NCBI GenBank assembly: GCA_001804415.1
Contig: MHGA01000006.1
Coordinates: forward strand, 14,308 to 78,307
DNA from: Candidatus Aquivivens invisus
Lineage (GTDB): Bacteria; Omnitrophota; Gorgyraeia; Aquiviventales; Aquiviventaceae
Length of the DNA: 64,000 nucleotides
Direction of reading: 5' to 3'
Positions within the stretch are counted from its first letter, which is position 1. The number at the start of each line of letters is the position of its first letter. This document shows, piece by piece, positions 7,655-44,120 of the stretch. A program made the position numbers and the translations under genes. The notes below the pieces were generated by a model. The model searched no databases, was not told where the DNA came from, and saw only the letters and a list, made by a program, of their open reading frames with translations.

Positions 7655-8779
7655 ATGAATCGTGCCCAACTCATCATCGCCGATAGCGAGAAAAACGCCA
7701 ACCTCTACTACGCCACGAGATTCCTGGCGCCCGATCCGTTCATCTTGGTTCAAGCCGACGGCCGCAAGCAGCTGGTCATGAGCGACCTGGAGCTGGATCG
7801 CGCCAAGGCGCAAGCGACGGTGGATGAGGTCCTCTCGTACACCGCCCTGGCCCGACAGGCCAAGCAACGGCTCAGCGGGGAACCGACGATGCTGGATGTC
7901 GTCGATGAGCTCTTGCAGGCGTACGGGGCGAAGGCGATCGAGGTCCCGCTCGATTTCAGCGTCGGGCACGCGGATGGGCTGAGGCAGCGGGGCTATGAGA
8001 TCGTCGCCAAGCCGGAGCCGTTTTACCCGCAGCGACTGCTGAAGTCCGAGGAGGAAATCGCCTTCCTCACCCAGACGCTTCGCGCGACGGAAGACGCGCT
8101 CGAATCGGCCATCGAGCTGATCCGCAACTCCGAGATCAAGGCCGACGGGACGCTGTGGATCGGTGGCAAGCCCCTCACGGTGGAGATGATCCGGAAGGTC
8201 CTGCACATGCAGCTGCTGGAGCGCAACTGCATCGGGCAGCACACGATCATCGCCTGCGGGGCGCAGGCGGTCGATCCGCACAACGAAGGTTCAGGCCCGC
8301 TGAGGGCCAACGAGCCGATCGTGATGGACGTGTTCCCGCAGCACGCCGATACGCGCTACTTCGCCGACATCACGCGCACCATCGTCAAGGGCAAGGCGGC
8401 TCCGAAAGTCCGCAAGATGTTCGACGCGGTGCGCGAGGGGCAGGAGATCGCCTTTCGGATGATCAAAGACGGCGTGGATGGGTCGGTGGTGCATCAAGCG
8501 ATCCTGGCCTCGTTCGAGTCGCTCGGGTTCAAGACGGGGCCGCAGGACGGCCGCATGCAGGGGTTCTTCCACGGGACGGGTCACGGGGTCGGCTTGGAGA
8601 TCCACGAGCCGCCGCGCATCAGCCCCCGCAAGGACATCTTGAGAGCCGGCATGGTGGTGACGGTTGAGCCCGGACTCTACTACATGGATGCCGGCGGGAT
8701 GCGCCTCGAGGACATGGTCGTGGTGACGAGCGACGGGTGTCTGGTGCTGACCCAGGCCCCGAAAATCTTGGAAGTGTAG
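7655..8779 (+). CDS. M24 family Xaa-Pro aminopeptidase / creatinase-type peptidase
   Basis: Creatinase N-domain plus pita-bread fold motifs (HGTGHGVGLEIHEPP, VEPGLY). Confidence 0.8.
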   Translation: MNRAQLIIADSEKNANLYYATRFLAPDPFILVQADGRKQLVMSDLELDRAKAQATVDEVLSYTALARQAKQRLSGEPTMLDVVDELLQAYGAKAIEVPLDFSVGHADGLRQRGYEIVAKPEPFYPQRLLKSEEEIAFLTQTLRATEDALESAIELIRNSEIKADGTLWIGGKPLTVEMIRKVLHMQLLERNCIGQHTIIACGAQAVDPHNEGSGPLRANEPIVMDVFPQHADTRYFADITRTIVKGKAAPKVRKMFDAVREGQEIAFRMIKDGVDGSVVHQAILASFESLGFKTGPQDGRMQGFFHGTGHGVGLEIHEPPRISPRKDILRAGMVVTVEPGLYYMDAGGMRLEDMVVVTSDGCLVLTQAPKILEV

Positions 8780-8783
8780 CGCC

Positions 8784-10403
8784 ATGCCCGAGACGCTCCA
8801 CACCACCGCCTTGACCCCTGAGCCCATCGTCAGGCTCGAGAACTATTTCCGCGAGCCGTACAACCTCGCCGTCGCGGCGGCGCGCACCTGTTACTCCTCC
8901 CAGGTGATCTCGACGGACGATGTGGACCGCGATGACCAAACCCGCGCCCAGCGGGACCGCATCGCGGAGAGCATCTACAAGGCCGGCCATCACACGACGA
9001 TCCAGCACCCCACCTTCCAGTTCGTCCTTGAGCGCGTGTCACGCCACTGCATTTGGTCCTTCCTCCACGCGCATCCTTTTTATAACAGCGAGCAGGTTTC
9101 ACAACGTTTTGTCGAGGTGAAGCCGGAGCATTTTACGATCCCGCCGCTGGAAGACGCCGCCCGGTCGATCTACCTCAAGGCGGTGCGCGCGCAGATGGAC
9201 GCCTACCACCGCCTGTGCGAGCTGGTGGAGCCGACGGTCAACCTGGAGTATCGGCGGATCTTTCCCCATCGCGAGCTGTCGGACAAACGCTGGAAGGGCG
9301 CCATCAAGAAACGCTGCCAGGAGGTGGCGAGGTACGTCTTGCCGGTGGCGACCCACGCGCACCTCTACCACACGATCAGCGGGATTACCCTGCACCGCTA
9401 CTGGCGGCTATGCCGGCAGTTTGACGTCCCGCTGGAGCAGCGCTTCGTCGTGCAGCGAATGGTCGAGGAGGTGTGCCGGGTCGATCCGAAGTTCATGGCC
9501 CTGGCGGAGGATCCGATGCCGATGGAGGAGACGCTGGAGTATCGCGTGTTCCAGGCTCTCCACGCCGGATCCCCGGCCCGCCTCGATGGCCAGAGTCCGG
9601 GGCGGGCAACCAACGGGACGGGCCGAGGCTTTGTCGATGAATTCGACCGGGAGCTCGGTGCGCACACCTCCAGGCTGGTGGATTACAAGGCGCGCGCGCA
9701 AGAGACCCTGGCGCAGGCGGTGCGATCGGTGCTCGGCGTACCCAGAGGACAGCTGTCAGATCTGCAGGCGATCGATCTGGTGCTCAATCCGGCGCGCAAC
9801 CCCTACCTGTCCGACACGCTGACCCTCACGACGGTCAGCAAGCTCTCCCGCGCCCTGGTGCATCCCCACTTTACATTTAAGAAGAAACTGTCGCACACCG
9901 CTGATTCGCAGGACCAGCGCCACCGCATGGTGCCCGCCTCGCGGCCGATCCTGCTGACCCACTTCGTCGCGGATCGACCGGACTACATCACCCCCGTCCT
10001 GATTCGCGCCACCCCGGAAGCTCTCGCCTGCTACGGCGAGGTGATGACCACGGTCTGGCGCGCCATCACCCGGTTGCTCGAGCTAGGGGTGAGCCACGAA
10101 TTCGCGCTGTACCTGCTCCCCAATGCGTTTCCGATCCGGTTTGAAGAGTCGGGCGATTTGCTGCACTTCCATCACAAGTGGGTGCAGCGGCTCTGCTACA
10201 CGGCGCAGGAGGAAATCTGGAACAGCTGTCGCGAAGAGGTGTTGCAGGTGACCGAGCGTTTTCCGGAGATCGGCCGGTACCTCCAAGCGCCGTGCTGGCC
10301 GAGGTCGCAGGCAGGGATTCGTCCGTACTGTCCCGAAGGCGACCGCTTCTGCGGCGTCGCCGTGTGGAAGCTGCCGGTCGAAGAGTACCAACGGCTCATT
10401 TGA
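8784..10403 (+). CDS. Tandem-domain ThyX-like (flavin-dependent thymidylate synthase family) protein, 539 aa
   Basis: Two ThyX-like halves; the first has GHHTTIQH...SRHCIWSFLHAHPF..SQRF (RHR replaced by HAH), the second retains RHRMVPAS. Confidence 0.55.
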   Translation: MPETLHTTALTPEPIVRLENYFREPYNLAVAAARTCYSSQVISTDDVDRDDQTRAQRDRIAESIYKAGHHTTIQHPTFQFVLERVSRHCIWSFLHAHPFYNSEQVSQRFVEVKPEHFTIPPLEDAARSIYLKAVRAQMDAYHRLCELVEPTVNLEYRRIFPHRELSDKRWKGAIKKRCQEVARYVLPVATHAHLYHTISGITLHRYWRLCRQFDVPLEQRFVVQRMVEEVCRVDPKFMALAEDPMPMEETLEYRVFQALHAGSPARLDGQSPGRATNGTGRGFVDEFDRELGAHTSRLVDYKARAQETLAQAVRSVLGVPRGQLSDLQAIDLVLNPARNPYLSDTLTLTTVSKLSRALVHPHFTFKKKLSHTADSQDQRHRMVPASRPILLTHFVADRPDYITPVLIRATPEALACYGEVMTTVWRAITRLLELGVSHEFALYLLPNAFPIRFEESGDLLHFHHKWVQRLCYTAQEEIWNSCREEVLQVTERFPEIGRYLQAPCWPRSQAGIRPYCPEGDRFCGVAVWKLPVEEYQRLI

Positions 10404-10411
10404 AGCAAGCG

Positions 10412-10460
10412 ACAAGGGACAAGGGACAAGGGACAAGGGACAAGGGACAAGGGACAAGGA
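10412..10460. repeat. Tandem heptanucleotide repeat (ACAAGGG)x7 between thyX-like stop and cld-like start
   Basis: Seven consecutive 7-nt units, last one ACAAGGA. Confidence 0.95.
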
Positions 10461-10462
10461 AC

Positions 10463-11209
10463 ATGACCATGCCGATACCGGTCGAGGAAGCCAAGAGCCA
10501 CGCCCCCGCGGTTCAACGGGAGGCCGTGGCTCGGCAGATCGTGGGGTTCTCGTTCTACCGCGTGGATCCGGAGTGGAGGCGGCTGCCGGCTTCGACGAAG
10601 CGCAGGCAGGGCGGGGAGCTGGCCGGTGTCATCACGCGCTACGCCAAGCAGCTGATGGTGCTGACCTATTCGCTCGTCGGGTTGAAGCCCGACGTCGACT
10701 TCTTGATCTGGCGCGTGGGCAACCGGCTTGAGCAGCTGCAGGCGATGTCGGCGGCGGTTCGGCAGACGGCGATGGCCGGGTACCTGTCGATGCCGCACGC
10801 GTATCTGTCGATGACGAAACGGTCCACCTACGTGGATAAGCTCGATCCCGATCACGCGGATGCGCGGCGGTTCATCACGCCGTTTCACAGCAAGTACCTG
10901 TTCGTCTATCCCTTCGTGAAAACCCACGAATGGTATCAGCTCCCGTTCGAACAGCGCCAGGCGATGATGGACGAGCATATCGTCCTGGGGAACACGTACC
11001 CCTCGGTGCGGATCCACACGACCTACGGCTTCGGGCTGGATGATCACGAGTTCGTCCTCGCCTTTGAAACCGACCACCCTCAGGACTTCCTCGATCTCGT
11101 GATGGCGATGCGCGAGAGCAAGGCTCGCCCCTACACCCTGCGGGATACGCCGATCTTCACCTGTGTGGCCAAACCGTTTGATGAGATTCTCAATGAAATC
11201 GGCTGCTGA
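10463..11209 (+). CDS. Chlorite dismutase family protein (Cld-like/HemQ-like), cytoplasmic (no signal peptide)
   Basis: C-terminal half aligns with Nitrospira Cld (YxFVKTxEWYxLxxxxRxxMMxEH, GLDDxxF..FET); ATG right after the heptamer tract. Confidence 0.75.
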   Translation: MTMPIPVEEAKSHAPAVQREAVARQIVGFSFYRVDPEWRRLPASTKRRQGGELAGVITRYAKQLMVLTYSLVGLKPDVDFLIWRVGNRLEQLQAMSAAVRQTAMAGYLSMPHAYLSMTKRSTYVDKLDPDHADARRFITPFHSKYLFVYPFVKTHEWYQLPFEQRQAMMDEHIVLGNTYPSVRIHTTYGFGLDDHEFVLAFETDHPQDFLDLVMAMRESKARPYTLRDTPIFTCVAKPFDEILNEIGC

Positions 11210-11214
11210 ACGGC

Positions 11215-11913
11215 ATGCCCGAGTGTCTCACCGCTGAGGTCACGTACCCGAGCGACGGCCTCACGCTCAGGGGCTTCCTGGCGCGGCCACACGATGAGCA
11301 GCCTCGTCCCGCCGTGGTGGTGATCCACGAATGGTGGGGGCTCAACGACCACATCAAGGATGTCACCCAGCGGTTTGCGAAGGAAGGTTACGTGGCGCTG
11401 GCGCCTGACCTCTACTCCCGTGTGGGTCACAAGGTGACGAAGGACCCCGACGAGGCGGCGAAGCTGATGGAACGCCTGCAATCGCAACACGCGCTCAAAG
11501 ACCTCAACGCGGCCACGCGCTATCTCAAGACGCTATCGTGTGTCGACCCCATCAAGATCGGGGCGGTGGGGTTGGGCATGGGAGGGACGTTCGCCTTGAT
11601 GGTGGCCTCACACAACTCCGATGTCAAAGCCTCGGTGTCGTTTTACGGGCAGATCCCCCCAACCGATAGCCTCAAGTATCTCCTCGCGCCTATCCTCTAT
11701 CTCCACGGGGGGCAGGACGCGTGGATTCCGTCGCGCGAGGCGCAGCGCCTTGCTCAGGGGCTCAAACAATTCGGACGGCCGGGCGAGGTGCAGAGCTACG
11801 CGGATTGCCCGCACGCCTTTTTCAACGACACCCATCCTGAGGTGTATCGTTCGAACGAGGCCAAGGACGCCTGGCAACGGACCGCGCGTTTCCTCGCAAC
11901 CTACCTGAGGTAG
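11215..11913 (+). CDS. Dienelactone hydrolase family protein
   Basis: VVIHEWWGLNDH, alpha/beta hydrolase DLH layout, 232 aa. Confidence 0.75.
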   Translation: MPECLTAEVTYPSDGLTLRGFLARPHDEQPRPAVVVIHEWWGLNDHIKDVTQRFAKEGYVALAPDLYSRVGHKVTKDPDEAAKLMERLQSQHALKDLNAATRYLKTLSCVDPIKIGAVGLGMGGTFALMVASHNSDVKASVSFYGQIPPTDSLKYLLAPILYLHGGQDAWIPSREAQRLAQGLKQFGRPGEVQSYADCPHAFFNDTHPEVYRSNEAKDAWQRTARFLATYLR

Positions 11914-11915
11914 CC

Positions 11916-12395
11916 ATGGATGCCCAAGCGAAGAAGATCGCGTTGAGGAAAATTCCGCACGGCGTCTATATCATCGGGGTGGCGCAGGACGGCCAGCTCA
12001 ACGCCTTCACCGGCACGTGGCTGACGCAGGTGTCCTTCACGCCTCCGTTGGTCGCGCTGGGGATCAGGAAGGACAGCCACTCCTTGTCCATGATCCAGCA
12101 CGCCAAGGTGTTCTCGGTGAACATCCTGGGCAAAGAGCAGAAGCCGCTCGCCGAGCATTTCGTCAAGCCCGCCACCGTCATCGGGGAGAAACTCAAGACC
12201 GTTGCGCACCGCGCCGGCAAGACCGGGGCTCCGCTCTTGGATGACGCGATCGCCTTCGTGGAGTGCGAGGTGCGGGAAATCGCCAATGAGCTCGGCGACC
12301 ATGCGGTGGTCATCGGCGAGGTGGTGGAGGCCGGCGTGCGCAACGACGTGCCGGCCTTGACGCTGATAGACACCGGCTGGCACTACGGTGGTTAA
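11916..12395 (+). CDS. Flavin reductase-like (FMN-binding split-barrel) protein
   Basis: 159 aa, typical flavin reductase domain (YIIGVAQDGQLNAFTGTWLTQVSFTPP). Confidence 0.7.
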   Translation: MDAQAKKIALRKIPHGVYIIGVAQDGQLNAFTGTWLTQVSFTPPLVALGIRKDSHSLSMIQHAKVFSVNILGKEQKPLAEHFVKPATVIGEKLKTVAHRAGKTGAPLLDDAIAFVECEVREIANELGDHAVVIGEVVEAGVRNDVPALTLIDTGWHYGG

Positions 12396-13929
12396 GTCTC
12401 TGGTTCGCTGGGCGAGGTGGGGCTGGCTGGTTCTCCTCCTCGGCTACTGCGCGCTGTTTTTCGCCGAGCCGATCAATCTCACCACCGCCGACCTGGGCCG
12501 GCATCTCAAGAACGGCCAGCTTGTCTGGCAGCATCCGGAGCTTCTCTCCACCAACTTCTACTCCTACACCGAGCCCACCCACCCCTTCCTCAATCACCAT
12601 TGGGCGAGCGGGATGGTGTTCTTTCTCATCTGGAGGCTCGGTGGGTTCGCCGGCCTGCACCTGTTCTTCATCGCGCTGAATCTCGCGGCTCTGGCCATCG
12701 CATGGCGATGCGCCGAGGAACGGGCCGGGGTCGGCGTCGCCGCGTGGCTCTCCATCCTCCTGCTCCCGCTCCTGGCCATTCGGGCTGAGGTTCGTCCCGA
12801 AGCCTTCAGCCTGCTCTTCACGTCGGTCTTCTTTCAGCGGTTGCTTCGATTCAGAGACCAACGGGCCTCACAACGCTCGGTGTGGTGGTTGCCTCTGCTC
12901 GAAGCCGTGTGGGTGAATCTCCACAGCTATTTTTTCCTGGGCCCGGCGCTGATCGCCGCCTTCCTCGTCGACAGCTTGTGCTCGCCCGCACGGAGGGGAC
13001 AGGCGCGCGTGTTGGCCGTCGTGCTGAGCCTGGCGATGCTGGCCACGCTGCTCAATCCCTTTGGGATCACGGGAGCCCTAGTGCCGTTGACGATCTTTCA
13101 GGAGTATGGCTACCGGTTGTTTGAGAACCAGACGATCCCGTTTCTCCTCGCTCGTTTTCAGATGCCCGCCTTGTGGCTCTTTCTCGGCGTGTTTATGGCG
13201 CTGGCCCTCAGCCTGGGGGGCGCGTGGGCTCGGGTGGGGAAATCAGCGGGAGTGGCCGAGACGCTCATCGCCGTTGGCGTCAGCGCCATGGGCTGGGTGG
13301 CCTATCGGAATCTGGCGTTGTTCGGGCTATTGGCCTTGCCGCTGATCGCCTCAGCGCTTGGCGTGCTGCGAGCGGTCCGTCCGCGCAACGACCGGTTCTT
13401 CGCGCTGGCCGCGGTGCTGTCGCTTGCGCTGGTCATCGCCGTCCCGTCGACGGTGTGGTCGCTTCCTCCGGCCTCCGGACGGCGTCTGGGTCTTGAGCCA
13501 GGCGACGGCGAGGCGGCGGCGTTTATCCGGCAGCAGCATCTTGAAGGCCCCATCTTTAATAACTATGACATCGGCGGCTACCTGATCTTCCACCTGTTTC
13601 CTGAGCACCGCGTCTTTGTCGACAACCGGCCGGAGGCGTATTCCGCGGCGTTCTTCAGGGAGCTCTATATCCCGATGCAAGAGGATGACGCGGTGTGGCG
13701 CGAGGCGGAGGCGAGGTTCGGGTTGAACATGATCGTCTTCCACCGGCACGACTTGACGCCGTGGGGGCAGCGCTTCATGATCGCGCGCGTGGACGATCCC
13801 GCGTGGGCCCCGGTCTTTGCGGACCGCGACACCCTCATCCTGCTGAAGCGAAACGTGCGCAACCGATCAGCGATCGACCGCTTTGAAATTCCCCGAAGCG
13901 CGTTTCACGTGACGCGCGCAAGCCCTTGA
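12388..13929 (+). CDS. Large polytopic membrane protein, unknown function (glycosyltransferase-39/ArnT-like topology possible)
   Basis: 513 aa, about 12 hydrophobic helices plus C-terminal soluble domain; GTG start overlapping previous gene. Confidence 0.5.
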   Translation: MVKSLVRWARWGWLVLLLGYCALFFAEPINLTTADLGRHLKNGQLVWQHPELLSTNFYSYTEPTHPFLNHHWASGMVFFLIWRLGGFAGLHLFFIALNLAALAIAWRCAEERAGVGVAAWLSILLLPLLAIRAEVRPEAFSLLFTSVFFQRLLRFRDQRASQRSVWWLPLLEAVWVNLHSYFFLGPALIAAFLVDSLCSPARRGQARVLAVVLSLAMLATLLNPFGITGALVPLTIFQEYGYRLFENQTIPFLLARFQMPALWLFLGVFMALALSLGGAWARVGKSAGVAETLIAVGVSAMGWVAYRNLALFGLLALPLIASALGVLRAVRPRNDRFFALAAVLSLALVIAVPSTVWSLPPASGRRLGLEPGDGEAAAFIRQQHLEGPIFNNYDIGGYLIFHLFPEHRVFVDNRPEAYSAAFFRELYIPMQEDDAVWREAEARFGLNMIVFHRHDLTPWGQRFMIARVDDPAWAPVFADRDTLILLKRNVRNRSAIDRFEIPRSAFHVTRASP

Positions 13930-14015: not shown

Positions 14016-14336
14016 GTGATTCGACGCTCGCGTCGTGTCGTCATCATGGGGCTCGCCGTCTGTTGGAGCCTGAGCGGTCCGGCACAACCGGTGTCGGCAG
14101 ATGCCCTTGGGGATCTTGTTGGAGGGCTTGGGCAGCTGCTCATCGGCGCGTTTGCCATTCCGGTTGAAGCCATCCAGGGGACGCTCAACGGGCCGCCGAT
14201 TCTTGGGACCATCGGCGGCATCCTCAGCGGGACGGTCCATACGGTCGGTTCAACACTGGGCGGGGTGCTGCAGATCGCCAAATCCGTCGTCCCCCTCGCC
14301 ACCTCCCTGGTGCCATTTCTTCCCTGGGTTCTCTAG
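14016..14336 (+). CDS. Small secreted Gly-rich protein, divergent member of the small secreted paralog family (see 37489, 47084, 56874)
   Basis: SD AGGAGG 4 nt before GTG; signal peptide; shares PxEAIQG...G...GG..H.V block with paralogs. Confidence 0.55.
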   Translation: MIRRSRRVVIMGLAVCWSLSGPAQPVSADALGDLVGGLGQLLIGAFAIPVEAIQGTLNGPPILGTIGGILSGTVHTVGSTLGGVLQIAKSVVPLATSLVPFLPWVL

Positions 14337-14343
14337 CCCTTCC

Positions 14344-15195
14344 GTGACCGTGCATCGCACCCGGCTGTCAACCTACGCCAACTTCATCAAACTTGAGCAC
14401 ACGATTCTTTCTCTGCCGCTCATCTATGCGGGAGCCGTCGTGGGTGCGGCAGGGTGGCCCTCGATCCGGCTGGCCGGCCTGATCCTGCTTGCGGCGATCG
14501 GAGGACGGGTGATGGCGATGGGATTGAACCGCCTCATCGACGCCGCCATCGATGCGCGCAACCCCCGCACGAAGGGCCGCGAGCTGCCAAGCGGCACGAT
14601 GCGACCGCTTGAGGCGTGGGGGATCGTCGGACTGGCCGGCCTGCTCTATGCAGGCAGTGCGGCGGCGGTTGCGCCGATCTGCCTGATCTGGTCGCCGCTG
14701 CCGGTTGCGCTGTTTGTCCTGTATCCGTATCTGAAGCGATTCACCGCGCTCTCACACGTTGGACTCGGTCTGGCTTGGTCGATGGGCCCGCTCGGTGGAT
14801 GGTTGGCGACTGCGCAGTCGTTGGCGCACCTTGATCAGATCATGTGGCTGTGGCTGTTCGCCGTCTTGTGGGTGGCGGGGTTCGACGTGATCTACGCCAC
14901 CCTGGATGAAGCGTTCGACCGGCAGGAAGGGTTGCATTCGCTGCCTGCGCGGATGGGAAAAGACCGCGCCCTGCGAGTTGCCGCGTTGTTGCACGCCGCC
15001 GCGTTCATGGCTCTGGCCATCTTACAGCGCGACGTCCTGCGCTCACCCGTTGGCTGGCCGTGGCTGCTCGCCATCGCCGCCATTCTCATTTGGGAGCACG
15101 CCATCGCTCCCCGCCGCCCAGAGTTCGCCTTCTTCTACTTAAATGCCGCTCTCGGCTTCCTTGTCTTCGGTCTGGTTGCATCCGGCTTGAGATAA
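14344..15195 (+). CDS. UbiA-family prenyltransferase, probable menaquinone (futalosine-route) prenyltransferase MqnP-like
   Basis: NRLIDAAIDARNPRTKGRELPSG UbiA motif, 8-9 TM; adjacent to UbiX/UbiD homologs. Confidence 0.75.
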   Translation: MTVHRTRLSTYANFIKLEHTILSLPLIYAGAVVGAAGWPSIRLAGLILLAAIGGRVMAMGLNRLIDAAIDARNPRTKGRELPSGTMRPLEAWGIVGLAGLLYAGSAAAVAPICLIWSPLPVALFVLYPYLKRFTALSHVGLGLAWSMGPLGGWLATAQSLAHLDQIMWLWLFAVLWVAGFDVIYATLDEAFDRQEGLHSLPARMGKDRALRVAALLHAAAFMALAILQRDVLRSPVGWPWLLAIAAILIWEHAIAPRRPEFAFFYLNAALGFLVFGLVASGLR

Positions 15196-15216
15196 CGGCG
15201 CTCCTTATCCAATCTA

Positions 15217-15245
15217 TTGATAATATACATTCTATATAGTATAAT
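15217..15245 (+). promoter_or_regulatory. Canonical sigma-70 promoter TTGATA-17nt-TATAAT upstream of phd/yefM antitoxin
   Basis: -35 TTGATA 15217-15222, 17-nt spacer, -10 TATAAT 15240-15245, SD GGGAGGGAGAGG before ATG 15285; AT-rich island. Confidence 0.7.
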
Positions 15246-15284
15246 CATATTAGTGGAATTGAGTTGGTAGCAGGGAGGGAGAGG

Positions 15285-15551
15285 ATGAAGGAGATCACAG
15301 CTCTCGAGCTTCGGAAGCGCTTTGGGGAAGTCATGGAAGATGTTCGTTATCGCAAGGAGCCGTATCTCGTAAAGCGGAACGGACGCCCCATGATCGTGCT
15401 GCTTGATATCGATGCGTATCAGGCCGATGAAAGTCGCCGAAAGGAAGACGTCTTCATTGAAGACTATACCGAGGAGCGTCTTCAGGAATTCTTAGAGGAA
15501 GACCGCCTGGATCCCGGCGTGCAGGCCCGTGTGAATCGGCGTCTGCGATAA
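15285..15551 (+). CDS. Phd/YefM-family antitoxin
   Basis: MKEITALELRKRFGEVMEDV...PYLVKRNGRPMIVLLDIDAYQ typical YefM/Phd N-domain. Confidence 0.8.
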   Translation: MKEITALELRKRFGEVMEDVRYRKEPYLVKRNGRPMIVLLDIDAYQADESRRKEDVFIEDYTEERLQEFLEEDRLDPGVQARVNRRLR

Positions 15552-15983
15552 ATGGTCCGGGTCTTCCTGGATGCGAACGTGTATTTCGCTGGTTGTTATT
15601 CTGCGAAGGGGGCCTCGGCGCTCCTGCTGAAGCTGGCGGTGCGCAAACGCCTCCAAGTGGTGGCATCTCGGCTAGTATTGCGGGAAGCCGAGCGCAACTT
15701 GCATGCGAAAGCCGATCGCAAGGCTCTGCGCGTGTTTCATCGGTTCTTAGAGACTGCCACCCCGCGCATACTTCGAACGCCATCCGCCAAAACGCTCGCT
15801 GCCTACGAGACGATTATTCATCCGAAAGACGTCCCAGTGCTGGCTGCGGCCGTTGAAGCAAAGGTTGACTATCTGGTGACGCTGGACCGCCGGCATTTCT
15901 TTGCCCCCCTCGTCGAGGCCCGAATTAAATCGCCGCGCATTCTGGCCCCCGGCGACTTCCTACAGGAATGGCTGTCGAGATGA
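15552..15983 (+). CDS. PIN-domain (VapC-like) toxin
   Basis: FLDANVY PIN signature, TAAATG junction with antitoxin. Confidence 0.75.
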   Translation: MVRVFLDANVYFAGCYSAKGASALLLKLAVRKRLQVVASRLVLREAERNLHAKADRKALRVFHRFLETATPRILRTPSAKTLAAYETIIHPKDVPVLAAAVEAKVDYLVTLDRRHFFAPLVEARIKSPRILAPGDFLQEWLSR

Positions 15984-16219
15984 AACGTACAAAACGCGAA
16001 GTGGCGGACATCATTGACTCATTTTTATCAGGCGAGGGAGAGGAGTGGGACTGGGATGATTTTACCAGCATTCCAATTCACGATCCCGAGTTAAACAGAA
16101 TTCGTCTGAGGTGCGTTCAACTCGACAAAGAATTTCCTCCAGAGAAACGTGGCGAGTATTGTAATGCTCATGGAATGGACGTGTTGCGGGATTATGTGAA
16201 GCGATTACGGACGAAATAG
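15979..16219 (+). CDS. Small acidic hypothetical protein in low-GC island (80 aa)
   Basis: ATGA overlap with vapC stop; markedly AT-rich codon usage. Confidence 0.4.
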
Positions 16220-16226
16220 AGATCTG

Positions 16227-16790
16227 ATGGAGAGAATGATGCGCATTGTAGTCGGGATGACGGGGGCGTCGGGGGCGGTCTTCGGGGTGGAGTTTCTGCG
16301 GCGATGTCAGGCGGAGAAATACCTGATTCTGACGAAGTGGGGGCGGTACGTGCTGAAAGAAGAAACCGGCCTGACCGAACACCATCTAGCCGAGCATGTC
16401 AAACGCAGCTTTTCAGACGACGATCTCTCCGCGCCGTTTTCCTCAGGGTCGACGCCGTTCGATGCGCTGGTGATCGTGCCCTGCTCCGCCTCGACGATGG
16501 CCAAGCTCGCTGTCGGGATTGCCGATACCCTGCTGACAAGGGCGGCGATGGTCGCTCTCAAAGAACGGCGAAAGCTGATCATCTGCCTTCGCGAGACGCC
16601 GTTGTCCACCATCCACTTGGAACAGGCGCACAAGCTCTCGCAGGCCGGCGCCATCGTGATGCCGATTTGCCCGCCGTTCTATCACCGCCCCCAGACGATC
16701 GACGAGATGGTGAGCCAGTTCACCGAGAAGGTCCTGAGTCTCCTCGGATTCGAAACCTCGCTTGCTTGGAAAGCCGAAGCCCTTGAGTAA
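16227..16790 (+). CDS. ubiX: Flavin prenyltransferase UbiX family (MqnL-like in futalosine route)
   Basis: Flavoprotein fold motifs GMTGASGAV, PCSASTMAKLAVGIADTLLTRAA. Confidence 0.85.
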   Translation: MERMMRIVVGMTGASGAVFGVEFLRRCQAEKYLILTKWGRYVLKEETGLTEHHLAEHVKRSFSDDDLSAPFSSGSTPFDALVIVPCSASTMAKLAVGIADTLLTRAAMVALKERRKLIICLRETPLSTIHLEQAHKLSQAGAIVMPICPPFYHRPQTIDEMVSQFTEKVLSLLGFETSLAWKAEALE

Positions 16791-18548
16791 ATGGCTGATT
16801 TGCAATCCTTCCTCTCCCTCTTAGAACGCGAGGACCAACTCGCCCGCATCCGGGTGGAGGTCGATCCGGAGCTCGAGATCACCGAGATCGCCACGCGCGT
16901 GGTCAAGGAACGGGGGCCGGCGCTGTTGTTCGAGCGGGTGAAAGGCTCGGCCATCCCTCTGGCGATTAACATCTTGGGGACTGAGCGGCGCATCGAGCTC
17001 GCGCTCGGTCGGCACCCGCAAGAGGTTGGGGCCTCGCTGAAGCGCTTGATGGAAGCCGCGATGCCGCCTCGGCCCAAGCGGTTGCTCGAGGAATGGCGCA
17101 CCGTTGGCCGGGTGCTGTCGATGCCGCCCAGGCGGGTGCGTCGCGCGGCGTGCCACGACGTGGAAGAACCGCCCGACCTGGGGAAGCTGCCCATCATGAA
17201 ATGCTGGCCGAACGACGCGGGGCGGTTCATCACCTGCGGGATGGTGCTGACGCATGATCCCAAGACGGAGGTCCGGAACCTTGGCATCTACCGGATGCAG
17301 GTGGTCGGAGGCGATCAGGTGCTCATGCACTGGCAGATCCAGAAGGGCGGAGGATTCCACTATTGGAAAGCCGAGCAGCAGGGCAAGGCGCTGGCGGTCT
17401 CGGTCATCATCGGCGCAGATCCTCTCCTTTATATCGCTTCGGTCGCTCCGCTGCCTGAAGGGATTGACGAGCTGGCGTTCGCCGGATTTCTGGGAGGCCG
17501 GCGCATCCCGCTGGTGCATGGGAAGGCCACACCGACCGTCGCTCCCGCCGAGGCGGAGATCGTGCTGGAAGGTGTGGTGCCGCCTGATGAGCGCCTGCCC
17601 GAAGGGCCGTTCGGGGACCATTTCGGCCACTACTCCCATCCCGCGCCGTTTCCCGTGATGTGGGTTCAGACCATGACGCGCCGCGCCAAGCCGATTTATC
17701 TCTCGGCGGTCGTGGGCAAACCCCCTCAAGAGGACCGGTATATCGGCGACGCGGTGCAGGAGATGCTGCTGCCGATGATCCGGTTGATCCATCCGGAGCT
17801 GAAGGACCTGTGGGCCTATTACGAGGCCGGGTTTCACAGCCTGGCGGTGGCGGCGGTTGAGGAGCGGTACGGCAAGGAAGGGATGAAGACCGCCCTGGGG
17901 CTGCTGGGAACCGGGCAGATGAGCCTCACCAAGTGCCTCATCCTGGTGGATCCGGACGTCAACGCGCGCGACGCCAACGAAGTGCTGCGCGCCGTGCGCG
18001 ATCATTTCGATCCGGCGGAGGACTTTCTCTTGCTCCCTGGTGTCCCTTTTGATACGCTAGATTTTACGAGCCTGACCCCCAATCTGGGCAGCAAGATGGT
18101 GCTCGATGCCACCCGCGACGGGAAGGCATCCCCTCCAGGGGTTCCTCCAGTTGATCTGGAGGCTGTCCGGTGTCTGCATCCACGGATCCAAGCTGCCCGC
18201 ATCATCGGGGGATGTCTGGTGGCGGTCCAGGTCGAGGGCGAAGGCCGCTCGGTGGTGGAGGCGCTCGTTCAGGCGGATGCGTTGCGCGCCGTCAAGCTGA
18301 TCGCCGCGGTCAGCGCCGACGTGGACCTGCGCGAGGGCGAAAGCCTGTTGTGGGGGATCTTCACGCGGTTTGATCCCGCCCGCGACGTCGTCTTCACCGA
18401 GGTGGAGCTCCACGGAGGCTGGCCCATCCACCGAGGCCGCCTCGGCATCGATGCCACCTTCAAGACCGGATACCCTGATCCGATCGTGATGGATCCGGCA
18501 GTCGTCACACGAGTCACCCAACGATGGCCTCACTACTTCAAGGCGTAG
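16791..18548 (+). CDS. ubiD: UbiD-family decarboxylase (MqnM-like in futalosine route)
   Basis: 585 aa, UbiD family conserved blocks; starts 1 nt after ubiX stop. Confidence 0.8.
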   Translation: MADLQSFLSLLEREDQLARIRVEVDPELEITEIATRVVKERGPALLFERVKGSAIPLAINILGTERRIELALGRHPQEVGASLKRLMEAAMPPRPKRLLEEWRTVGRVLSMPPRRVRRAACHDVEEPPDLGKLPIMKCWPNDAGRFITCGMVLTHDPKTEVRNLGIYRMQVVGGDQVLMHWQIQKGGGFHYWKAEQQGKALAVSVIIGADPLLYIASVAPLPEGIDELAFAGFLGGRRIPLVHGKATPTVAPAEAEIVLEGVVPPDERLPEGPFGDHFGHYSHPAPFPVMWVQTMTRRAKPIYLSAVVGKPPQEDRYIGDAVQEMLLPMIRLIHPELKDLWAYYEAGFHSLAVAAVEERYGKEGMKTALGLLGTGQMSLTKCLILVDPDVNARDANEVLRAVRDHFDPAEDFLLLPGVPFDTLDFTSLTPNLGSKMVLDATRDGKASPPGVPPVDLEAVRCLHPRIQAARIIGGCLVAVQVEGEGRSVVEALVQADALRAVKLIAAVSADVDLREGESLLWGIFTRFDPARDVVFTEVELHGGWPIHRGRLGIDATFKTGYPDPIVMDPAVVTRVTQRWPHYFKA

Positions 18549-18574
18549 CCGACCGCCTTCAGCGCCGCGCGCGG

Positions 18575-19702
18575 ATGTCGAGAGCAGAGGCGCTGAAGCT
18601 CTTTGAGGCACGCGATCTCATCGGCCTCGGGCAATTGGCGAACGAGGTCAAGCAAGCCACATGGGGCGATCGCGCCCACTTTGTGATCAACCGCCAGATC
18701 AACCCTACGAACGTCTGCGTCCTGTCCTGCCGGTTCTGCGACTTCGCGACCAAGCGGGGACGCCCTAACGCCTACGAGATGACGATCCAGGACGTCTTAG
18801 ATCGCCTCAGCCCGGAGCTGCGGGAAGTCCACATCGTGCAGGGGCTGCATCCGGACTGGACGTGGGATTTCTACCTGGAGATGCTCCGCGCGATCAAGAC
18901 GAGCTTCCCCCGGATGCAGATCAAAGCCTGGACGGCGGTTGAGATTGACTATTTCTCCAAGAAGTTTCGCCTCTCGGTCGAAGAGGTCCTGGTGCAGATG
19001 AAGGAGGCGGGGCTCTCCGCCTTGCCCGGCGGGGGCGCGGAGGTGTTTTCCGAACGGGTGCGCAAGGCGCTGTTTCCCTTTAAAATCGGCGCGCCGAGGT
19101 GGCTGGAGATTCACCGGATCGCGCATCAGCTGGGCATCCCGACCAACGCGACCTTGCTGTACGGCCACATCGAGACGCGCGAAGAACGCGTGGATCACCT
19201 CCTGAAGCTTCGCGAACTCCAGGATGACACCGGCGGCTTCATGAGCTTCATCCCGTTGGCGTATCAAGTCGGCAAGACGCGCGTGGTCGAGCGCCAGGCG
19301 TCGGCGATCGAGGACCTCAAGACGATGGCGATCTCCAGGCTGCTCCTGGACAACATCCCCCACATCAAAGCCTACTGGGTGACGATGGGTGAAGAGACGG
19401 CGTCGATCGCCCTGAACTTCGGGGCCGATGATCTCGACGGGACGATCGGGGAGGAGCGGATCATGCATGCCGCGGATGCCGCAAGCCCGATTCGGCAGAC
19501 CCGCGAGCGGCTGGTGGAACTCATCCGAGCCTCCGGATGCGTGCCGGTGGAACGCGATGCCCTCTATCACGAGGTCGCGGTGTGCGACCCTTCGACTCGC
19601 GCCACGGCCTCTGGCCGTGGGCTCGCTCAGGATTCCGCCCCACGGGCGCAGGAAGAGGTGCCACGGGCTCTGCCCGTGGGGCTCCACAATGGCCACCGGT
19701 AA
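18575..19702 (+). CDS. Radical SAM menaquinone biosynthesis enzyme, MqnC/MqnE family (paralog 1; alternative start 18524); about 45-aa C-terminal extension encoded by hairpin repeats
   Basis: NPTNVCVLSCRFCDFA cluster motif, CofG/CofH-like fold. Confidence 0.75.
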   Translation: MSRAEALKLFEARDLIGLGQLANEVKQATWGDRAHFVINRQINPTNVCVLSCRFCDFATKRGRPNAYEMTIQDVLDRLSPELREVHIVQGLHPDWTWDFYLEMLRAIKTSFPRMQIKAWTAVEIDYFSKKFRLSVEEVLVQMKEAGLSALPGGGAEVFSERVRKALFPFKIGAPRWLEIHRIAHQLGIPTNATLLYGHIETREERVDHLLKLRELQDDTGGFMSFIPLAYQVGKTRVVERQASAIEDLKTMAISRLLLDNIPHIKAYWVTMGEETASIALNFGADDLDGTIGEERIMHAADAASPIRQTRERLVELIRASGCVPVERDALYHEVAVCDPSTRATASGRGLAQDSAPRAQEEVPRALPVGLHNGHR

Positions 19703-19736
19703 AGTCAGAAGTCAAAAGTCAGAAGTCGGAAGTACA
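19702..19736. repeat. Tandem heptanucleotide repeat (AAGTCAG)x5 (imperfect) between mqnC/E paralog 1 and mqnA
   Basis: aagtcag aagtcaa aagtcag aagtcgg aagtaca, followed by CT-rich run. Confidence 0.9.
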
Positions 19737-19766
19737 CTTCCCTCTTCCCCCTTCGCTCTTCCCCCT

Positions 19767-20522
19767 TTGACGGTGGCCCGCATTCCGTATCTCAACTGCG
19801 CGCCGTTTTTTGCCGGCCTTCCGCTCAAGCCAGGATGGGAGGTGGTCGACGTTGCGCCCAGGCGTTTAGGCCAGATGGCTGAGGAGGGCAAGTTCTTGGC
19901 GGGCGTGATGTCGCTGGCGGATTACCTGCGGTTGCAGGATCGCTTCGAGCGGATCGGGCCGCTGGGGGTGGCGGTGCGGGGACGGGTGGGCAGCGCGCTG
20001 CTGTTTTCGCGCAAACCCCTTCGGCAGCTGGACGGCGCCTGCGTCGCGGTGACGGACGAAACGTCGACGACCGCCCTGTTGCTTCGCGTGATCCTGGAAC
20101 AGCGTTACCACCTGACGGTTCGACTCGCGCCGCACGCCCACCCGACCCAGCAGGATGCTGACGCGGTGCTGCTGATCGGCGATGAGGCCTTGCGGTTTGG
20201 CAGCGTCAACCGGCTCTATCCGTTTGAGATTGATGTCGCCTTTGAATGGTGGTTGTGGCAGCATCTGCCCTGCGTCTTCGCCGTGTGGGCGATCCGCGCG
20301 GACGCCGGCGCGAGCACCAAGCGGGAGGTGAGCGAAGCCCTCCAGCGCACCCTGGCGGTCAACCTGCGTCGCCTCGATGAGCTCGTCATCCAACCGGCTG
20401 CCTCCCTGCACGTTCCGGCCGAGGACCTCACGATGTATCTGAGCCGGTTCATCTATCGTCTCAGCGCCGAGGAGGAGCGCGCCATCCAGCGCTTCGCCCA
20501 ACTGTCCCAATCCATGGCATGA
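19767..20522 (+). CDS. mqnA: Chorismate dehydratase MqnA (start uncertain: TTG 19767/GTG 19773, or ATG 19689 if heptamer tract is translated)
   Basis: RIPYLNCAPF MqnA signature, PF02621-type fold. Confidence 0.75.
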   Translation: MTVARIPYLNCAPFFAGLPLKPGWEVVDVAPRRLGQMAEEGKFLAGVMSLADYLRLQDRFERIGPLGVAVRGRVGSALLFSRKPLRQLDGACVAVTDETSTTALLLRVILEQRYHLTVRLAPHAHPTQQDADAVLLIGDEALRFGSVNRLYPFEIDVAFEWWLWQHLPCVFAVWAIRADAGASTKREVSEALQRTLAVNLRRLDELVIQPAASLHVPAEDLTMYLSRFIYRLSAEEERAIQRFAQLSQSMA

Positions 20523-21604
20523 GCCCCGTCTGCTGCGACTCGCTCGAGGAGAAGGTGTTCGCCGGGGAGCGGCTGACGCGCGAGGAAGGCCGCTCCCTCT
20601 TGCAAGACGCCTCCCTCCTTGAGCTAGGTCAGCTCGCCAACTCCGTGCGCTCCCGCCACAATCCCGACCCCGCCGTGACGTTTGTGATCGACTCGAATCC
20701 GAACTACACGAATGTGTGCATCACCGACTGCGTCTTCTGCGCGTTCTACCGCAAGCCCGGCTCGAAGGACGGCTATGTCCTGACGGTGGACCAAGTCATG
20801 GAGAAGGTCCGTCGGGCCGTTGAGTTGGGGGCGACGACCGTCTTGCTGCAAGGAGGGCACAACCCGCAGATTCCCCTCAGCTATTACCTGGCGTTGGTCT
20901 CCGAAACCCGCCGCCGGTTTCCGCAGGTGACCCCGCATTTCTTCACCGCCTCGGAAGTGACGACGATGGCGCAGGTCTCCGGGCTGCCGATCGGCGATGT
21001 GCTCAGACAGCTCAAAGACGCGGGGCAGTCCACCTTGCCGGGCGGGGGCGCGGAGATCCTCTCCGATCGCATTCGGCGGAGGCTCAGTCCGAAGAAAGGC
21101 GGAGCCGAGGCGTGGTTATCGGTCCATCGCGAAGCGCACCGCCTCGGCTTCAAATCGACCGCGACCATGATGTTCGGTCACCTCGAGGACGACGACGATC
21201 TCCTCCAACACCTTGAGCACATCCGCGGGCTGCAAGATGAGACGAGAGGGTTCACCGCTTTTATCCCGTGGAGCTTCAAGCCCGGCAACACCCCGCTCGA
21301 GAAACCGATCCCGCATCACGCCGACCCAACCCGTTACCTTCGGATCATCGCGCTCTCGCGACTCTACCTCGACAACGTCCCGCACATCCAGGCTTCCTGG
21401 TTCTCTGAAGGCAAGAAGACCGGCCAGGTCGCTCTGCACTTCGGGGCCGACGATTTCGGAGGGACCTTGTTCGAGGAGAACGTGCACGCCGCCACCAACT
21501 TTATCAACACAACGAGCGTTGAGGACCTCGTCACCGTGATCCGTGAAGCGGGATTTCGGCCGGTTCAACGCACCACGTTGTACGAACGCATCAAGGAGTG
21601 GTAA
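20519..21604 (+). CDS. Radical SAM menaquinone biosynthesis enzyme, MqnC/MqnE family (paralog 2)
   Basis: NYTNVCITDCVFCAF motif; ATGA overlap with mqnA. Confidence 0.75.
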   Translation: MSPVCCDSLEEKVFAGERLTREEGRSLLQDASLLELGQLANSVRSRHNPDPAVTFVIDSNPNYTNVCITDCVFCAFYRKPGSKDGYVLTVDQVMEKVRRAVELGATTVLLQGGHNPQIPLSYYLALVSETRRRFPQVTPHFFTASEVTTMAQVSGLPIGDVLRQLKDAGQSTLPGGGAEILSDRIRRRLSPKKGGAEAWLSVHREAHRLGFKSTATMMFGHLEDDDDLLQHLEHIRGLQDETRGFTAFIPWSFKPGNTPLEKPIPHHADPTRYLRIIALSRLYLDNVPHIQASWFSEGKKTGQVALHFGADDFGGTLFEENVHAATNFINTTSVEDLVTVIREAGFRPVQRTTLYERIKEW

Positions 21605-33154: not shown

Positions 33155-33232
33155 CCGTTGTTTCCTCGGATGGCGGCCCGACCACCGACAACTCCTCTAA
33201 GAAGGAGCATGCGCTGCCTTCTTAGACCCTTC
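33134..33232 (-). terminator. Copy 1 of a repeated two-hairpin module ending (minus orientation) in GC hairpin plus U-run; downstream of ArsB/NhaD-family gene
   Basis: Hairpins ctctaagaagg/ccttcttagag and ccgccatccg/cggatggcgg, conserved linker GGTGGTCGGGCC. Confidence 0.6.
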
Positions 33233-34842: not shown

Positions 34843-34925
34843 CGCAAAATAAAAACCGCCATCTAGCAAACGCTAGGTGGCGGCCCGACCACTAGAAACT
34901 CCTCCGGGCGATATACCCGGACCCT
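34843..34925 (-). terminator. Copy 2 of the repeated two-hairpin/terminator module (downstream of mscS)
   Basis: GGAAGCGCAAAATAAAAACCGCCATC identical to copy 3; first hairpin replaced by ccggg/cccgg stem. Confidence 0.6.
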
Positions 34926-44023: not shown

Positions 44024-44120
44024 AGCGCAAAATAAAAACCGCCATCCAGCAATGCTAGATGGCGGCCCGACCACCGAACCTCCTCTAAGAAGGGGCACAA
44101 GACATCCTTCTTAGACCCTT
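44024..44120 (-). terminator. Copy 3 of the repeated two-hairpin/terminator module (downstream of APC permease)
   Basis: Minus orientation: GGGUCUAAGAAGG..CCUUCUUAGAGG-AGGUUCGGUGGUCGGGCC-GCCAUCUAGCAUUGCUGGAUGGCGG-UUUUUAUUUU. Confidence 0.65.

Follow-up and report, generated by a model that had tools for sequence, protein, structure and literature searches.

Known flavin-dependent thymidylate synthases

Flavin-dependent thymidylate synthase (ThyX, or FDTS) forms dTMP from dUMP, CH2H4folate and NAD(P)H via an enzyme-bound FAD. The enzyme is of interest as a target for antibiotics and as the textbook example of a three-subunit active site, its canonical form being a homotetramer with four sites, each built from three subunits. 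Another arrangement of an oligomeric enzyme of nucleotide metabolism is known from the monomeric herpesvirus dUTPase, in which the subunit was duplicated and fused and the motifs were partitioned, leaving one site per chain. The dUMP-binding residues of M. tuberculosis ThyX come from two subunits, R95 and R199 lying on subunit A and R87, S105, R107 and Y108 on subunit C, and the RHR motif of subunit A holds FAD (PMC6514825). The same split is found in PBCV-1 ThyX, where Gln75 and Arg182 come from one monomer and Ser88/Gln89 from the other (PMC3498832), and canonical sites need three subunits (PMC6514825; PMC3498832). Among the relatives of ThyX, PolB (PDB 4p5a) is a ThyX-like UMP/dUMP C5-methylase of polyoxin biosynthesis. 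Among known systems, the canonical enzymes T. maritima TM0449 (1o26), M. tuberculosis Rv2754c (2af6/3gwc) and PBCV-1 A674R (2cfa/4fzb) stand nearest to the protein described here.

A tandem ThyX protein of two complete domains

Within the window, i.e., the whole 64-kb stretch of DNA analysed, one gene encodes a ThyX-like protein of twice the canonical architecture (Table 1). Read jointly, the evidence makes it likely that this gene is the organism's thyX and belongs to a tandem subfamily, with complementary halves, a pseudo-tetrameric assembly and a metal held by cysteines. The protein was read identically on 24 contigs from NCBI, JGI and ENA assemblies and is therefore no assembly artefact. 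With the whole protein as query, the Pfam model Thy1 (PF02511) gave two matched stretches (E=3.5e-49). Scanned alone, the N-terminal half matched positions 2-190 of the 191-position profile (108 bits, E=5.8e-31) and the C-terminal half positions 1-191 (67 bits, E=2.2e-18), so that with a gathering score of 24.8 both halves stand above threshold separately, far past chance. The double-length protein with two ThyX-like halves that the first-pass annotation had described is thus borne out, each half matching the full-length profile and the count being two Thy1 domains, not one next to an unrelated domain. Two fused domains (~220 and ~200 residues) stand where canonical homotetrameric ThyX has one. 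The score of 80.1 bits against TIGR02170, the curated thyX equivalog, lies below the cut-off of 87.9 of this model, which was built for single-domain ThyX.

Structure prediction for the whole chain agrees with this picture. The AlphaFold2 monomer model (pLDDT 94.5, pTM 0.93) presents a confident and fixed inter-domain arrangement and has the ThyX fold; its structure matches are ThyX structures only, each spanning about half of the query. The PDB holds no structure of a tandem ThyX. The mean pLDDT falls to 57-60 in the two 10-residue blocks of the linker (261-280), whose length differs among homologues.

Table 1. Tandem thyX and surrounding features, in coordinates of the window
Feature	Position	Strand	Basis
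M24 metallopeptidase (Xaa-Pro aminopeptidase-like)	7655..8779	+	Pfam Peptidase_M24 E=2.1e-45, Creatinase_N
Tandem two-domain flavin-dependent thymidylate synthase (ThyX/FDTS), 539 aa	8784..10403	+	ATG start
N-terminal ThyX domain (residues 18-235)	8835..9488	+	Pfam on half alone, PDB profile alignment, residue counts
Degenerate ThyX motif L94-H95-A96-H97-P98 in the place of RHR	9063..9077	+	Translation, alignments to M. tuberculosis and T. maritima ThyX
Substrate (dUMP) loop of N-terminal half, F99-YNSEQVSQR-F109	9078..9110	+	Aligns with M. tuberculosis S105-Q106-R107-Y108
Inter-domain linker, variable, low-confidence (residues 262-280)	9567..9623	+	pLDDT and homologue lengths
C-terminal ThyX domain (residues 297-495)	9672..10268	+	Pfam on half alone, alignment to 3ge9/3gwc/6j61, residue counts
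Intact ThyX motif R379-H380-R381	9918..9926	+	Translation; aligns to RHR of C. glutamicum and M. tuberculosis ThyX
R469-L470-C471, uracil-binding Arg and first invariant Cys	10188..10196	+	Alignments; R469 and C471 invariant, 146/146
C-terminal tail (residues 496-539) with C504, C516, C523 (APC...CPEGxRxCG)	10269..10400	+	Translation, conservation
Heptanucleotide tandem repeat (CAAGGGA) x8.3	10406..10463	+	TRF score 102, 96% matches
Chlorite-dismutase-family protein, cytoplasmic	10466..11209	+	Pfam PF06778 E=1.4e-54, no signal-like N-terminus
Dienelactone hydrolase family alpha/beta hydrolase	11215..11913	+	Pfam DLH PF01738 E=8.1e-56
Small flavin reductase (HpaC/RutF-like domain)	11916..12395	+	Pfam Flavin_Reduct PF01613 E=2.4e-36

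Complementary degeneration of the two halves

Residue conservation was counted over 146 homologues with 31-83% identity to the tandem ThyX query. The N-terminal half, which aligns to 3gwc/2af6 with E=9e-19, reads LHAHPFYNSEQVSQRF at 9063-9110. In profile alignments with M. tuberculosis and T. maritima ThyX, either LHA or AHP stands opposite RHR, depending on the position of a one-residue gap. Both arginines are absent, as the first-pass annotation had claimed in reading HAH for RHR here, but its HAH register is off by about one residue. H95 is kept in 142 homologues, with L/F and S/A at the flanking positions, and an arginine occurs at only one of the RHR arginine positions, in a single homologue. 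The same half retains H69, T71, R87, S106, Q107, R108 and R183 in all 146 homologues, i.e., the equivalents of M. tuberculosis H69, R87, S105-Q106-R107 and R172 (R183 here), together with T71 as the equivalent of the third-subunit ligand S71. Position 109 of the substrate loop is Tyr in 126 sequences and Phe in 20, the Tyr "lid" being replaced by Phe (F109) in the protein of the window and its closest relatives. The 101-110 block is, besides the N-terminus and the linker, the sole region with a pLDDT below 90, dipping to 83. At the position of the uracil-binding R199, the N-terminal half carries S or C.

The C-terminal half reads ...SQDQRHRMVPASRP at 9888-9947, and in the alignments its R379-H380-R381 stands opposite the RHR of ThyX proteins with solved structures, which confirms that the second half keeps this motif. 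R379 and R381 are invariant, as are Q376 and R469 (146/146 each), and position 380 is His in 125 homologues and Gln in 21; R469 aligns with M. tuberculosis R199 and T. maritima R174. In this half, L replaces H69, S replaces R87 and L replaces R172, and the substrate loop is shortened and variable.

The degeneration is therefore complementary and not one-sided, each half lacking what the other keeps. This is illustrated by the ThyX motif RHRxxS...SxR(Y), of which RHR is found in the C-terminal half only and the intact S-x-R-(Y/F) in the N-terminal half only (S106-Q107-R108-F109), no single domain having the whole motif. Taking both halves together, the complete dUMP-contacting set (M. tuberculosis R87, R95, S105, R107, Y108 and R199) is present and invariant over the 146 homologues, with Phe for Tyr here. 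Neither half has an arginine counterpart of the FAD-phosphate ligand R190 of M. tuberculosis (T. maritima R165), in which the protein differs from canonical ThyX. Since a different portion of the active site is missing from each half, there is at most one complete site per chain. The proposal of a pseudo-dimer in one chain with a single complete site fits this pattern, whereas the view of the first half as simply a degenerate copy fails, since S106-Q107-R108-(Y/F)109, R87, R183 and H69 are kept by the N-terminal half alone.

Proposed active site and assembly

Judged from the alignments, the split between subunits A and C of M. tuberculosis ThyX is exactly that between the C-terminal and N-terminal halves of the tandem protein. 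The C-terminal domain would take the role of subunit A, with R379/H380/R381 holding the FAD phosphates and contacting dUMP, R469 binding uracil, and Q376 contributing. The N-terminal domain would act as subunit C, providing R87 and the mobile loop S106-Q107-R108-(Y/F)109, which may close over the dUMP phosphate and flavin N5, and would also supply R183, H69 and T71. Two chains would then pair into a homodimer equivalent to a pseudo-tetramer, in which each chain would have one competent FAD/dUMP site, the remaining two sites being vestigial. We infer the enzymatic activity, the dimeric pseudo-tetramer and the number of sites, as well as the metal discussed below.

The site could also be formed within a monomer, by the intramolecular interface between the N- and C-terminal domains alone and with no pseudo-tetramer. 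The confident and fixed inter-domain arrangement of the AlphaFold2 monomer (pTM 0.93) and the loss in both halves of the third-subunit FAD ligand (M. tuberculosis R190) are in line with such an organisation. Nevertheless, it is improbable, because canonical sites need three subunits (PMC6514825; PMC3498832), T71 of the N-terminal half, which corresponds to the third-subunit ligand S71, is invariant, and all solved ThyX proteins are tetramers.

In the favoured dimeric pseudo-tetramer, each half carries only some of the catalytic residues and, in contrast to canonical ThyX, no more than half of the geometric sites can therefore be complete. The tandem protein is thus expected to show half-of-sites behaviour, with one FAD per chain. 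Besides, a natural fusion that sorts the catalytic residues into two half-proteins would show which residues belong on which subunit, and it would offer a scaffold in which "subunit A" and "subunit C" can be mutated independently, whereas homotetramers need mixed-tetramer experiments. The likeness to the herpesvirus dUTPase is one of analogy only, fold and chemistry being unrelated.

A conserved tail and four invariant cysteines

Unlike canonical ThyX, the tandem protein has an additional C-terminal tail and four invariant cysteines. C504, C516 and C523 of the tail are kept in 146/146 homologues, as is C471 next to the uracil-binding arginine. The tail (residues 496-539) gives no Pfam match, and although regular secondary structure is sparse, its pLDDT is at least 95. 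Alignments to solved ThyX proteins of the PDB stop before it, and these proteins are without the four-Cys feature. This conservation suggests that C471, C504, C516 and C523 are a candidate four-Cys metal site, previously undescribed, which would most likely bind a structural metal and fasten the tail beside the active site. It is rather doubtful that the four cysteines hold a redox-active iron-sulfur cluster instead of structural zinc, and we know of no iron-sulfur cofactor described for ThyX. Such a cluster would either let electrons from ferredoxin or flavodoxin reach FAD without NAD(P)H or serve as a switch that senses redox state or oxygen.

A widespread family of housekeeping enzymes

Far from being peculiar to this genome, the tandem architecture defines a large family, whose members already carry the ThyX annotation. 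Proteins of ~520-570 aa are found in at least 580 species genomes and form 323 clusters at 50% identity (E<=1e-30); the source databases label them FAD-dependent thymidylate synthase. They range over Omnitrophota, Elusimicrobiota, small-genome Patescibacteria, DPANN archaea and one Chlamydiae MAG, and both ThyX halves were present in all 89 loci examined. In eight homologues, a 313-aa intein lies in the substrate loop of the N-terminal half, between the equivalents of N101 and S102 (..HPFYN|C...HN|SEQVSQR). Inteins typically occupy conserved functional sites of important proteins. The wide spread, the small-genome members, the absence of conserved neighbours (see below) and the intein in this loop all indicate a housekeeping character.

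The protein of the Chlamydiae MAG (P0428, 531 aa) has 60% identity to the tandem ThyX of the window. Chlamydia trachomatis ThyX (characterised by Griffin et al., J Biol Chem 2005), which we take to be of ~529 aa and of tandem type, probably belongs to the same subfamily, and this enzyme is reportedly a thymidylate synthase dependent on FAD, NADPH and CH2H4folate. Chlamydial sequences have been too divergent for inclusion in ThyX phylogenies (PMC6171736). From its sequences, the family appears to be the source of thymidylate synthase in many uncultured lineages (Omnitrophota, Elusimicrobiota, Patescibacteria, DPANN), probably also in Chlamydiae. Given this apparent role in so many lineages, the invariant four-Cys site and the missing structure are worth settling.

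Alternatively, the gene could encode a neofunctionalised, PolB-like paralogue acting on another pyrimidine nucleotide or on a nucleic acid, with dTMP coming from a thyA or a canonical thyX elsewhere. This is unlikely, since every residue contacting dUMP in M. tuberculosis ThyX is invariant in one half or the other, and since the family is very widespread, reaching minimal-genome Patescibacteria and DPANN archaea outside biosynthetic clusters. PolB is a single-domain protein encoded in an antibiotic gene cluster and confined to Streptomyces, whereas the tandem family has two domains, is widespread and has no biosynthetic clustering. Furthermore, the 64-kb window contains neither thyA nor a second thyX, neither gene was found within 6 kb at the 89 loci (~13 kb each), and Chlamydiaceae reportedly possess thyX and no thyA (PMC3932018).

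Gene neighbourhood

The first-pass annotation had placed the gene in a cluster with a signal-less, possibly HemQ-like Cld-family protein, a dienelactone hydrolase (DLH) and a flavin reductase that could supply reduced flavin. The identities of these neighbours hold. The Cld-family protein matches PF06778, and its top PDB matches, 9mhq and 6xub, are both coproheme decarboxylases (E=2e-25 to 3e-21), the VYPF and (D/E)H segments being aligned. Its score with NCBIfam HemQ_actino (131 bits) is below the cut-off of 235; as judged from sequence, the protein would be closest to an actinobacterial-type coproheme decarboxylase (ChdC/HemQ). Pfam likewise bears out the downstream DLH (PF01738) and the flavin reductase (PF01613), the latter scoring far below the cut-offs of all NCBIfam equivalog models, with no monooxygenase partner in the neighbourhood.

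The functional link is not supported. If ThyX, the Cld-like haem protein, DLH and the flavin reductase formed one unit, the reductase would feed a ThyX whose own reductive half-reaction is partly lost. From the M24 peptidase, which ends 4 nt before the thyX start, to a 513-aa membrane protein (12388..13929), the genes are indeed co-directional and lie 2-62 nt apart or overlap by 8 nt, there is no terminator-like site between thyX and the flavin reductase, and close relatives preserve the gene order. However, the Cld, DLH and flavin reductase genes adjoin tandem thyX in only 12 of 80 species loci, all with at least 67% identity, and are absent within 6 kb of it in the other 68. The set varies even among close relatives, L018 having no Cld and L021 Cld only within the short stretch covered, and more distant Omnitrophota carry pyruvate:ferredoxin oxidoreductase genes downstream instead. 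Besides, in canonical ThyX the enzyme itself reduces the FAD with NAD(P)H, no partner being required (PMC3498832). Further downstream lie menaquinone biosynthesis genes (UbiA, UbiX/UbiD, CofH-like, VitK2_biosynth), which indicates a mixed housekeeping operon. A common unit is hence very improbable: the link of the Cld, DLH and flavin reductase genes to tandem thyX is lineage-specific, with no sign of joint function found. The tandem thyX of the window is an ordinary housekeeping gene, and there is no ground for taking the Cld-like, DLH and flavin reductase genes beside it as a ThyX-linked pathway.

No neighbour of tandem thyX is universal among the 80 species loci. The most widely shared is the M24 peptidase, which lies upstream in 14 of them, also in L001-L009, and which, unlike the three genes directly downstream of thyX, also occurs at a few of the more distant loci. 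The spacer between thyX and the Cld gene is filled by the CAAGGGA repeat, with eight units in the window compared with seven in L005 and L007.

Two ThyX Domains Within a Single Chain

The tandem ThyX of the window is matched by the Pfam family PF02511 (Thy1) in two stretches (E = 3.5e-49). Searched alone, the N-half (residues 18-235; 108 bits, E = 5.8e-31) and the C-half (residues 297-495; 67 bits, E = 2.2e-18) each cover the whole 191-position Thy1 profile, which bears out the double-length, two-half ThyX proposed in the first-pass annotation. No Pfam family was matched by the final ~45 residues. The identical 539-aa protein is encoded by 24 contigs of Candidatus Omnitrophica, drawn from assemblies of NCBI, JGI and ENA; hence, the gene is real and not an assembly artefact. 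The coordinates of this gene and of the other features discussed are collected in the table.

The kinship of either half to ThyX is visible solely at the level of fold and family profile. No similarity between the N-half and the C-half was detected by BLASTP or by profile-profile comparison with hhalign (146 sequences), and the duplication, if any, is therefore old. The AlphaFold2 model obtained from the 146-sequence alignment, including a distant Patescibacteria clade, reached a pLDDT of 94.5 and a pTM of 0.93; a shallow alignment of 20 sequences had given a useless model (pLDDT 59.8). Poor definition was restricted to the linker (residues 262-280), with a slight dip of confidence in the substrate loop of the N-half. 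By its predicted function and fold, the protein belongs in the ThyX/FDTS family. Its score against TIGR02170, an equivalog model built for single-domain enzymes, was 80.1 and missed the cut-off of 87.9.

Features of the window
Feature	Position	Strand	Remark
M24 peptidase	7655..8779	+
Tandem ThyX ORF	8784..10403	+	ATG start, 539 aa
Intein site of homologues	9086/9087	+	between N101 and S102
F109	9108-9110	+	lid position, Mtb Y108
C471	10194-10196	+	invariant (146/146), not in solved ThyX
C504	10293-10295	+	as C471
C516	10329-10331	+	as C471
C523	10350-10352	+	as C471
CAAGGGA tandem repeat, x8.3	10406-10463		occupies the entire spacer between thyX stop and Cld-like start
Cld-family protein	10466..11209	+
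DLH	11215..11913	+
Flavin reductase	11916..12395	+
513-aa hydrophobic, probably membrane protein	12388-13929	+	8-nt overlap with flavin reductase stop
Menaquinone biosynthesis genes	14101-21604	+	Pfam UbiA, Flavoprotein, UbiD, CofH-like radical SAM, VitK2_biosynth
PhdYeFM antitoxin/PIN toxin pair	15264-15983
nhaA-I RNA (RF03057)	33168-33229	-	Rfam; the three matches score 42.5-42.9 bits, above gathering threshold
nhaA-I RNA (RF03057)	34875-34924	-	as above
nhaA-I RNA (RF03057)	44057-44118	-	as above

Active-Site Residues Are Divided Between the Two Halves

The motif region of the N-half translates as L94-H95-A96-H97-P98-FYNSEQVSQRF, and profile alignments set either LHA (T. maritima register) or AHP (M. 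tuberculosis register) opposite RHR. In either register, the two RHR arginines are absent and one histidine (H95) remains. The earlier reading of HAH in place of RHR was thus right about the loss of both arginines but off by one residue in its register. In the C-half (SHTADSQDQ-R379-H380-R381-MVPASRP), the RHR aligns with that of solved ThyX proteins, confirming that the second half retains the motif.

The fate of the other site residues was followed by a census of 146 homologues with 31-83% identity to the query. In the N-half, H69 and T71 (M. tuberculosis, Mtb, H69 and S71), R87 (Mtb R87), S106-Q107-R108 (Mtb S105-Q106-R107) and R183 (Mtb R172) are kept in 146/146 sequences, the SQR triplet being followed by Y/F at position 109 (Mtb Y108). 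In this same half, the RHR arginine positions hold L/F and S/A, and the position of the uracil-binding arginine (Mtb R199, T. maritima R174) holds S/C. Conversely, Q376, R379, R381 and R469 (Mtb R199) are kept in all 146 C-halves, where residue 380 is His in 125 sequences and Gln in the other 21. In this half, Leu occupies the positions of both H69 and R172, Ser occupies that of R87, and the substrate loop is variable as well as shortened. Neither half offers an Arg counterpart for one canonical ligand of FAD (Mtb R190, T. maritima R165). The canonical ThyX tyrosine (Mtb Y108) forms a lid over flavin N5 and dUMP C5; it is replaced by Phe (F109) in the query and its nearest relatives, with Tyr found in 126 of the 146 family members.

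In Mtb ThyX, the site is built by three subunits: A, whose RHR holds FAD and whose R95 and R199 reach dUMP; C, contributing R87, S105, R107 and the Y108 lid; and B, whose S71 and R190 contact the FAD phosphates (PMC6514825). The inhibitor structure of PBCV-1 ThyX displays the same split, with Gln75 and Arg182 from one monomer and Ser88/Gln89 from the other (PMC3498832). Set against this arrangement, the degeneration of the two halves is complementary, which is the central finding: the C-half has retained precisely the residues of subunit A, the N-half precisely those of subunit C. Because the residue sets match A and C, a complete site could be formed only by the C-half acting as A and the N-half acting as C, and the classical ThyX motif is likewise found only when both halves are taken together. 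Judged from sequence, the reciprocal combination (N-half as A, C-half as C) would be devoid of nearly all site residues. Three subunits contribute to each site, and the ligand supplied by subunit B, T71, is conserved in every N-half; two chains would therefore be expected to pair into a pseudo-tetramer holding two FAD molecules at two live sites. The pseudo-dimer in one chain suggested earlier is thereby both supported and sharpened by the residue census.

In eight of the 120 closest homologues (P0040, P0055, P0067, P0077, P0083, P0084, P0086 and P0094), a 313-aa intein (PF14890) lies in the substrate loop of the N-half; the thyX gene of the window is free of it. The precise insertion of the intein at this place points to the loop as a conserved functional site.

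An Invariant Four-Cysteine Set and a C-Terminal Tail

Four cysteines are invariant in the tandem family, whereas they are missing from solved ThyX proteins. C471 lies two residues past R469, the predicted uracil-binding arginine, and C504, C516 and C523 sit in a tail of the form APC-x11-CPEGxRxCG. The tail combines a pLDDT of at least 95 in the AlphaFold2 model with scant regular secondary structure, which is typical of a metal-knuckle. The four cysteines are a candidate metal site, probably for structural zinc; a redox-active Fe-S cluster is a less likely alternative. A mean-field DCA (390 sequences) of a possible contact between the tail and C471 and of the interface between the halves was discarded, as gap and alignment-block artefacts were dominant. 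C36 is also near-invariant and is common to actinobacterial single-domain ThyX (RACY).

Distribution of the Tandem Family

Tandem architecture characterises the family as a whole; both ThyX halves are present in 89/89 loci examined. Nearly all of the best 120 matches are 520-540 aa long, save those with the intein, which measure ~840 aa. When representatives at 50% identity were searched exhaustively, 323 clusters were obtained at E<=1e-30, with full-length members of ~500-570 aa and identities down to 34%. With one genome scanned for each species, relatives occurred in at least 580 species, the best 80 of which belong to Omnitrophota, Elusimicrobiota, Planctomycetota, Myxococcota, Acidobacteriota and Kryptoniota. 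The more distant bacterial members belong to Patescibacteria (Woesebacteria, Microgenomates, Blackburnbacteria), one Chlamydiae MAG and Leptospirales, and archaeal members from Woesearchaeota, Nanoarchaeota, Aenigmarchaeota and one Thaumarchaeota MAG. Viral contigs yielded no relative. A local search, confined to the 64-kb window and the 89 loci, found neither thyA nor a second thyX.

In source databases, these proteins are annotated as FAD-dependent thymidylate synthase. Our search of the open-access literature found no description of a double-length or tandem ThyX or of complementary motifs. The C. trachomatis ThyX characterised by Griffin et al. in 2005 is reportedly ~529 aa long; if so, it would fall in the same subfamily and would establish activity. 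The tandem family has probably been assayed already in Chlamydia. Chlamydiaceae lack thyA and depend on thyX (PMC3932018), and the chlamydial ThyX was too divergent and was excluded from the original phylogeny (PMC6171736). Both the complementarity of the half-sites and the four-Cys tail seem under-described. The case is structurally instructive, yet the family is common and already annotated.

Gene Neighbourhood

From the M24 peptidase to the 513-aa membrane protein, the genes all point the same way and are separated by 2-62 nt or joined by the 8-nt overlap, and no terminator-like site was found between thyX and the flavin reductase of the window, so that co-transcription is plausible. Each CAAGGGA unit of the spacer repeat holds a Shine-Dalgarno-like AAGGGA, and assemblies from a single population differ in copy number (8 units in the window, 7 in loci L005 and L007).

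The first-pass annotation had regarded thyX, Cld-like, DLH and flavin reductase as a possible functional cluster, which is not borne out across genomes. The trio follows the tandem thyX in only 12/80 species loci, the closest ones (at least 67% identity); in the remaining 68, none of the three genes was found within 6 kb. Instead, Omnitrophota loci at ~61-64% identity (L003, L004, L008) carry pyruvate:ferredoxin oxidoreductase genes directly after thyX, and a class II ribonucleotide reductase (TSCPD domain) in opposite orientation 3-5 kb upstream. Clustering of the neighbours in the 80 loci gave no recurrent functional partner, with 12 loci as the maximum for any of them; those that do recur are restricted to particular lineages and, by sequence reading, are a QueG-like protein, PurA and a sulfite-reductase-like protein. 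As the cross-genome comparison opposes a functional module, the four genes are best seen as a housekeeping gene whose neighbours are syntenic in one lineage only. The closest similarity of the Cld-family protein is to actinobacterial-type coproheme decarboxylases (E = 2e-25), in line with the possible HemQ-like identity suggested for it, though it scores under the curated NCBIfam cut-offs.

No family of Pfam or NCBIfam matches the 513-aa protein; by tblastn, the closest relative (L010) is the only one of the 80 species loci to carry it. The menaquinone genes downstream of thyX probably encode the futalosine route; they are split by the PhdYeFM/PIN pair, which is missing in a relative (L001). 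The nhaA-I RNA matches lie upstream of a CitMHS/ArsB-type transporter, an SPFH/Band_7 gene pair, and a histidine kinase with a sigma-54 response regulator.
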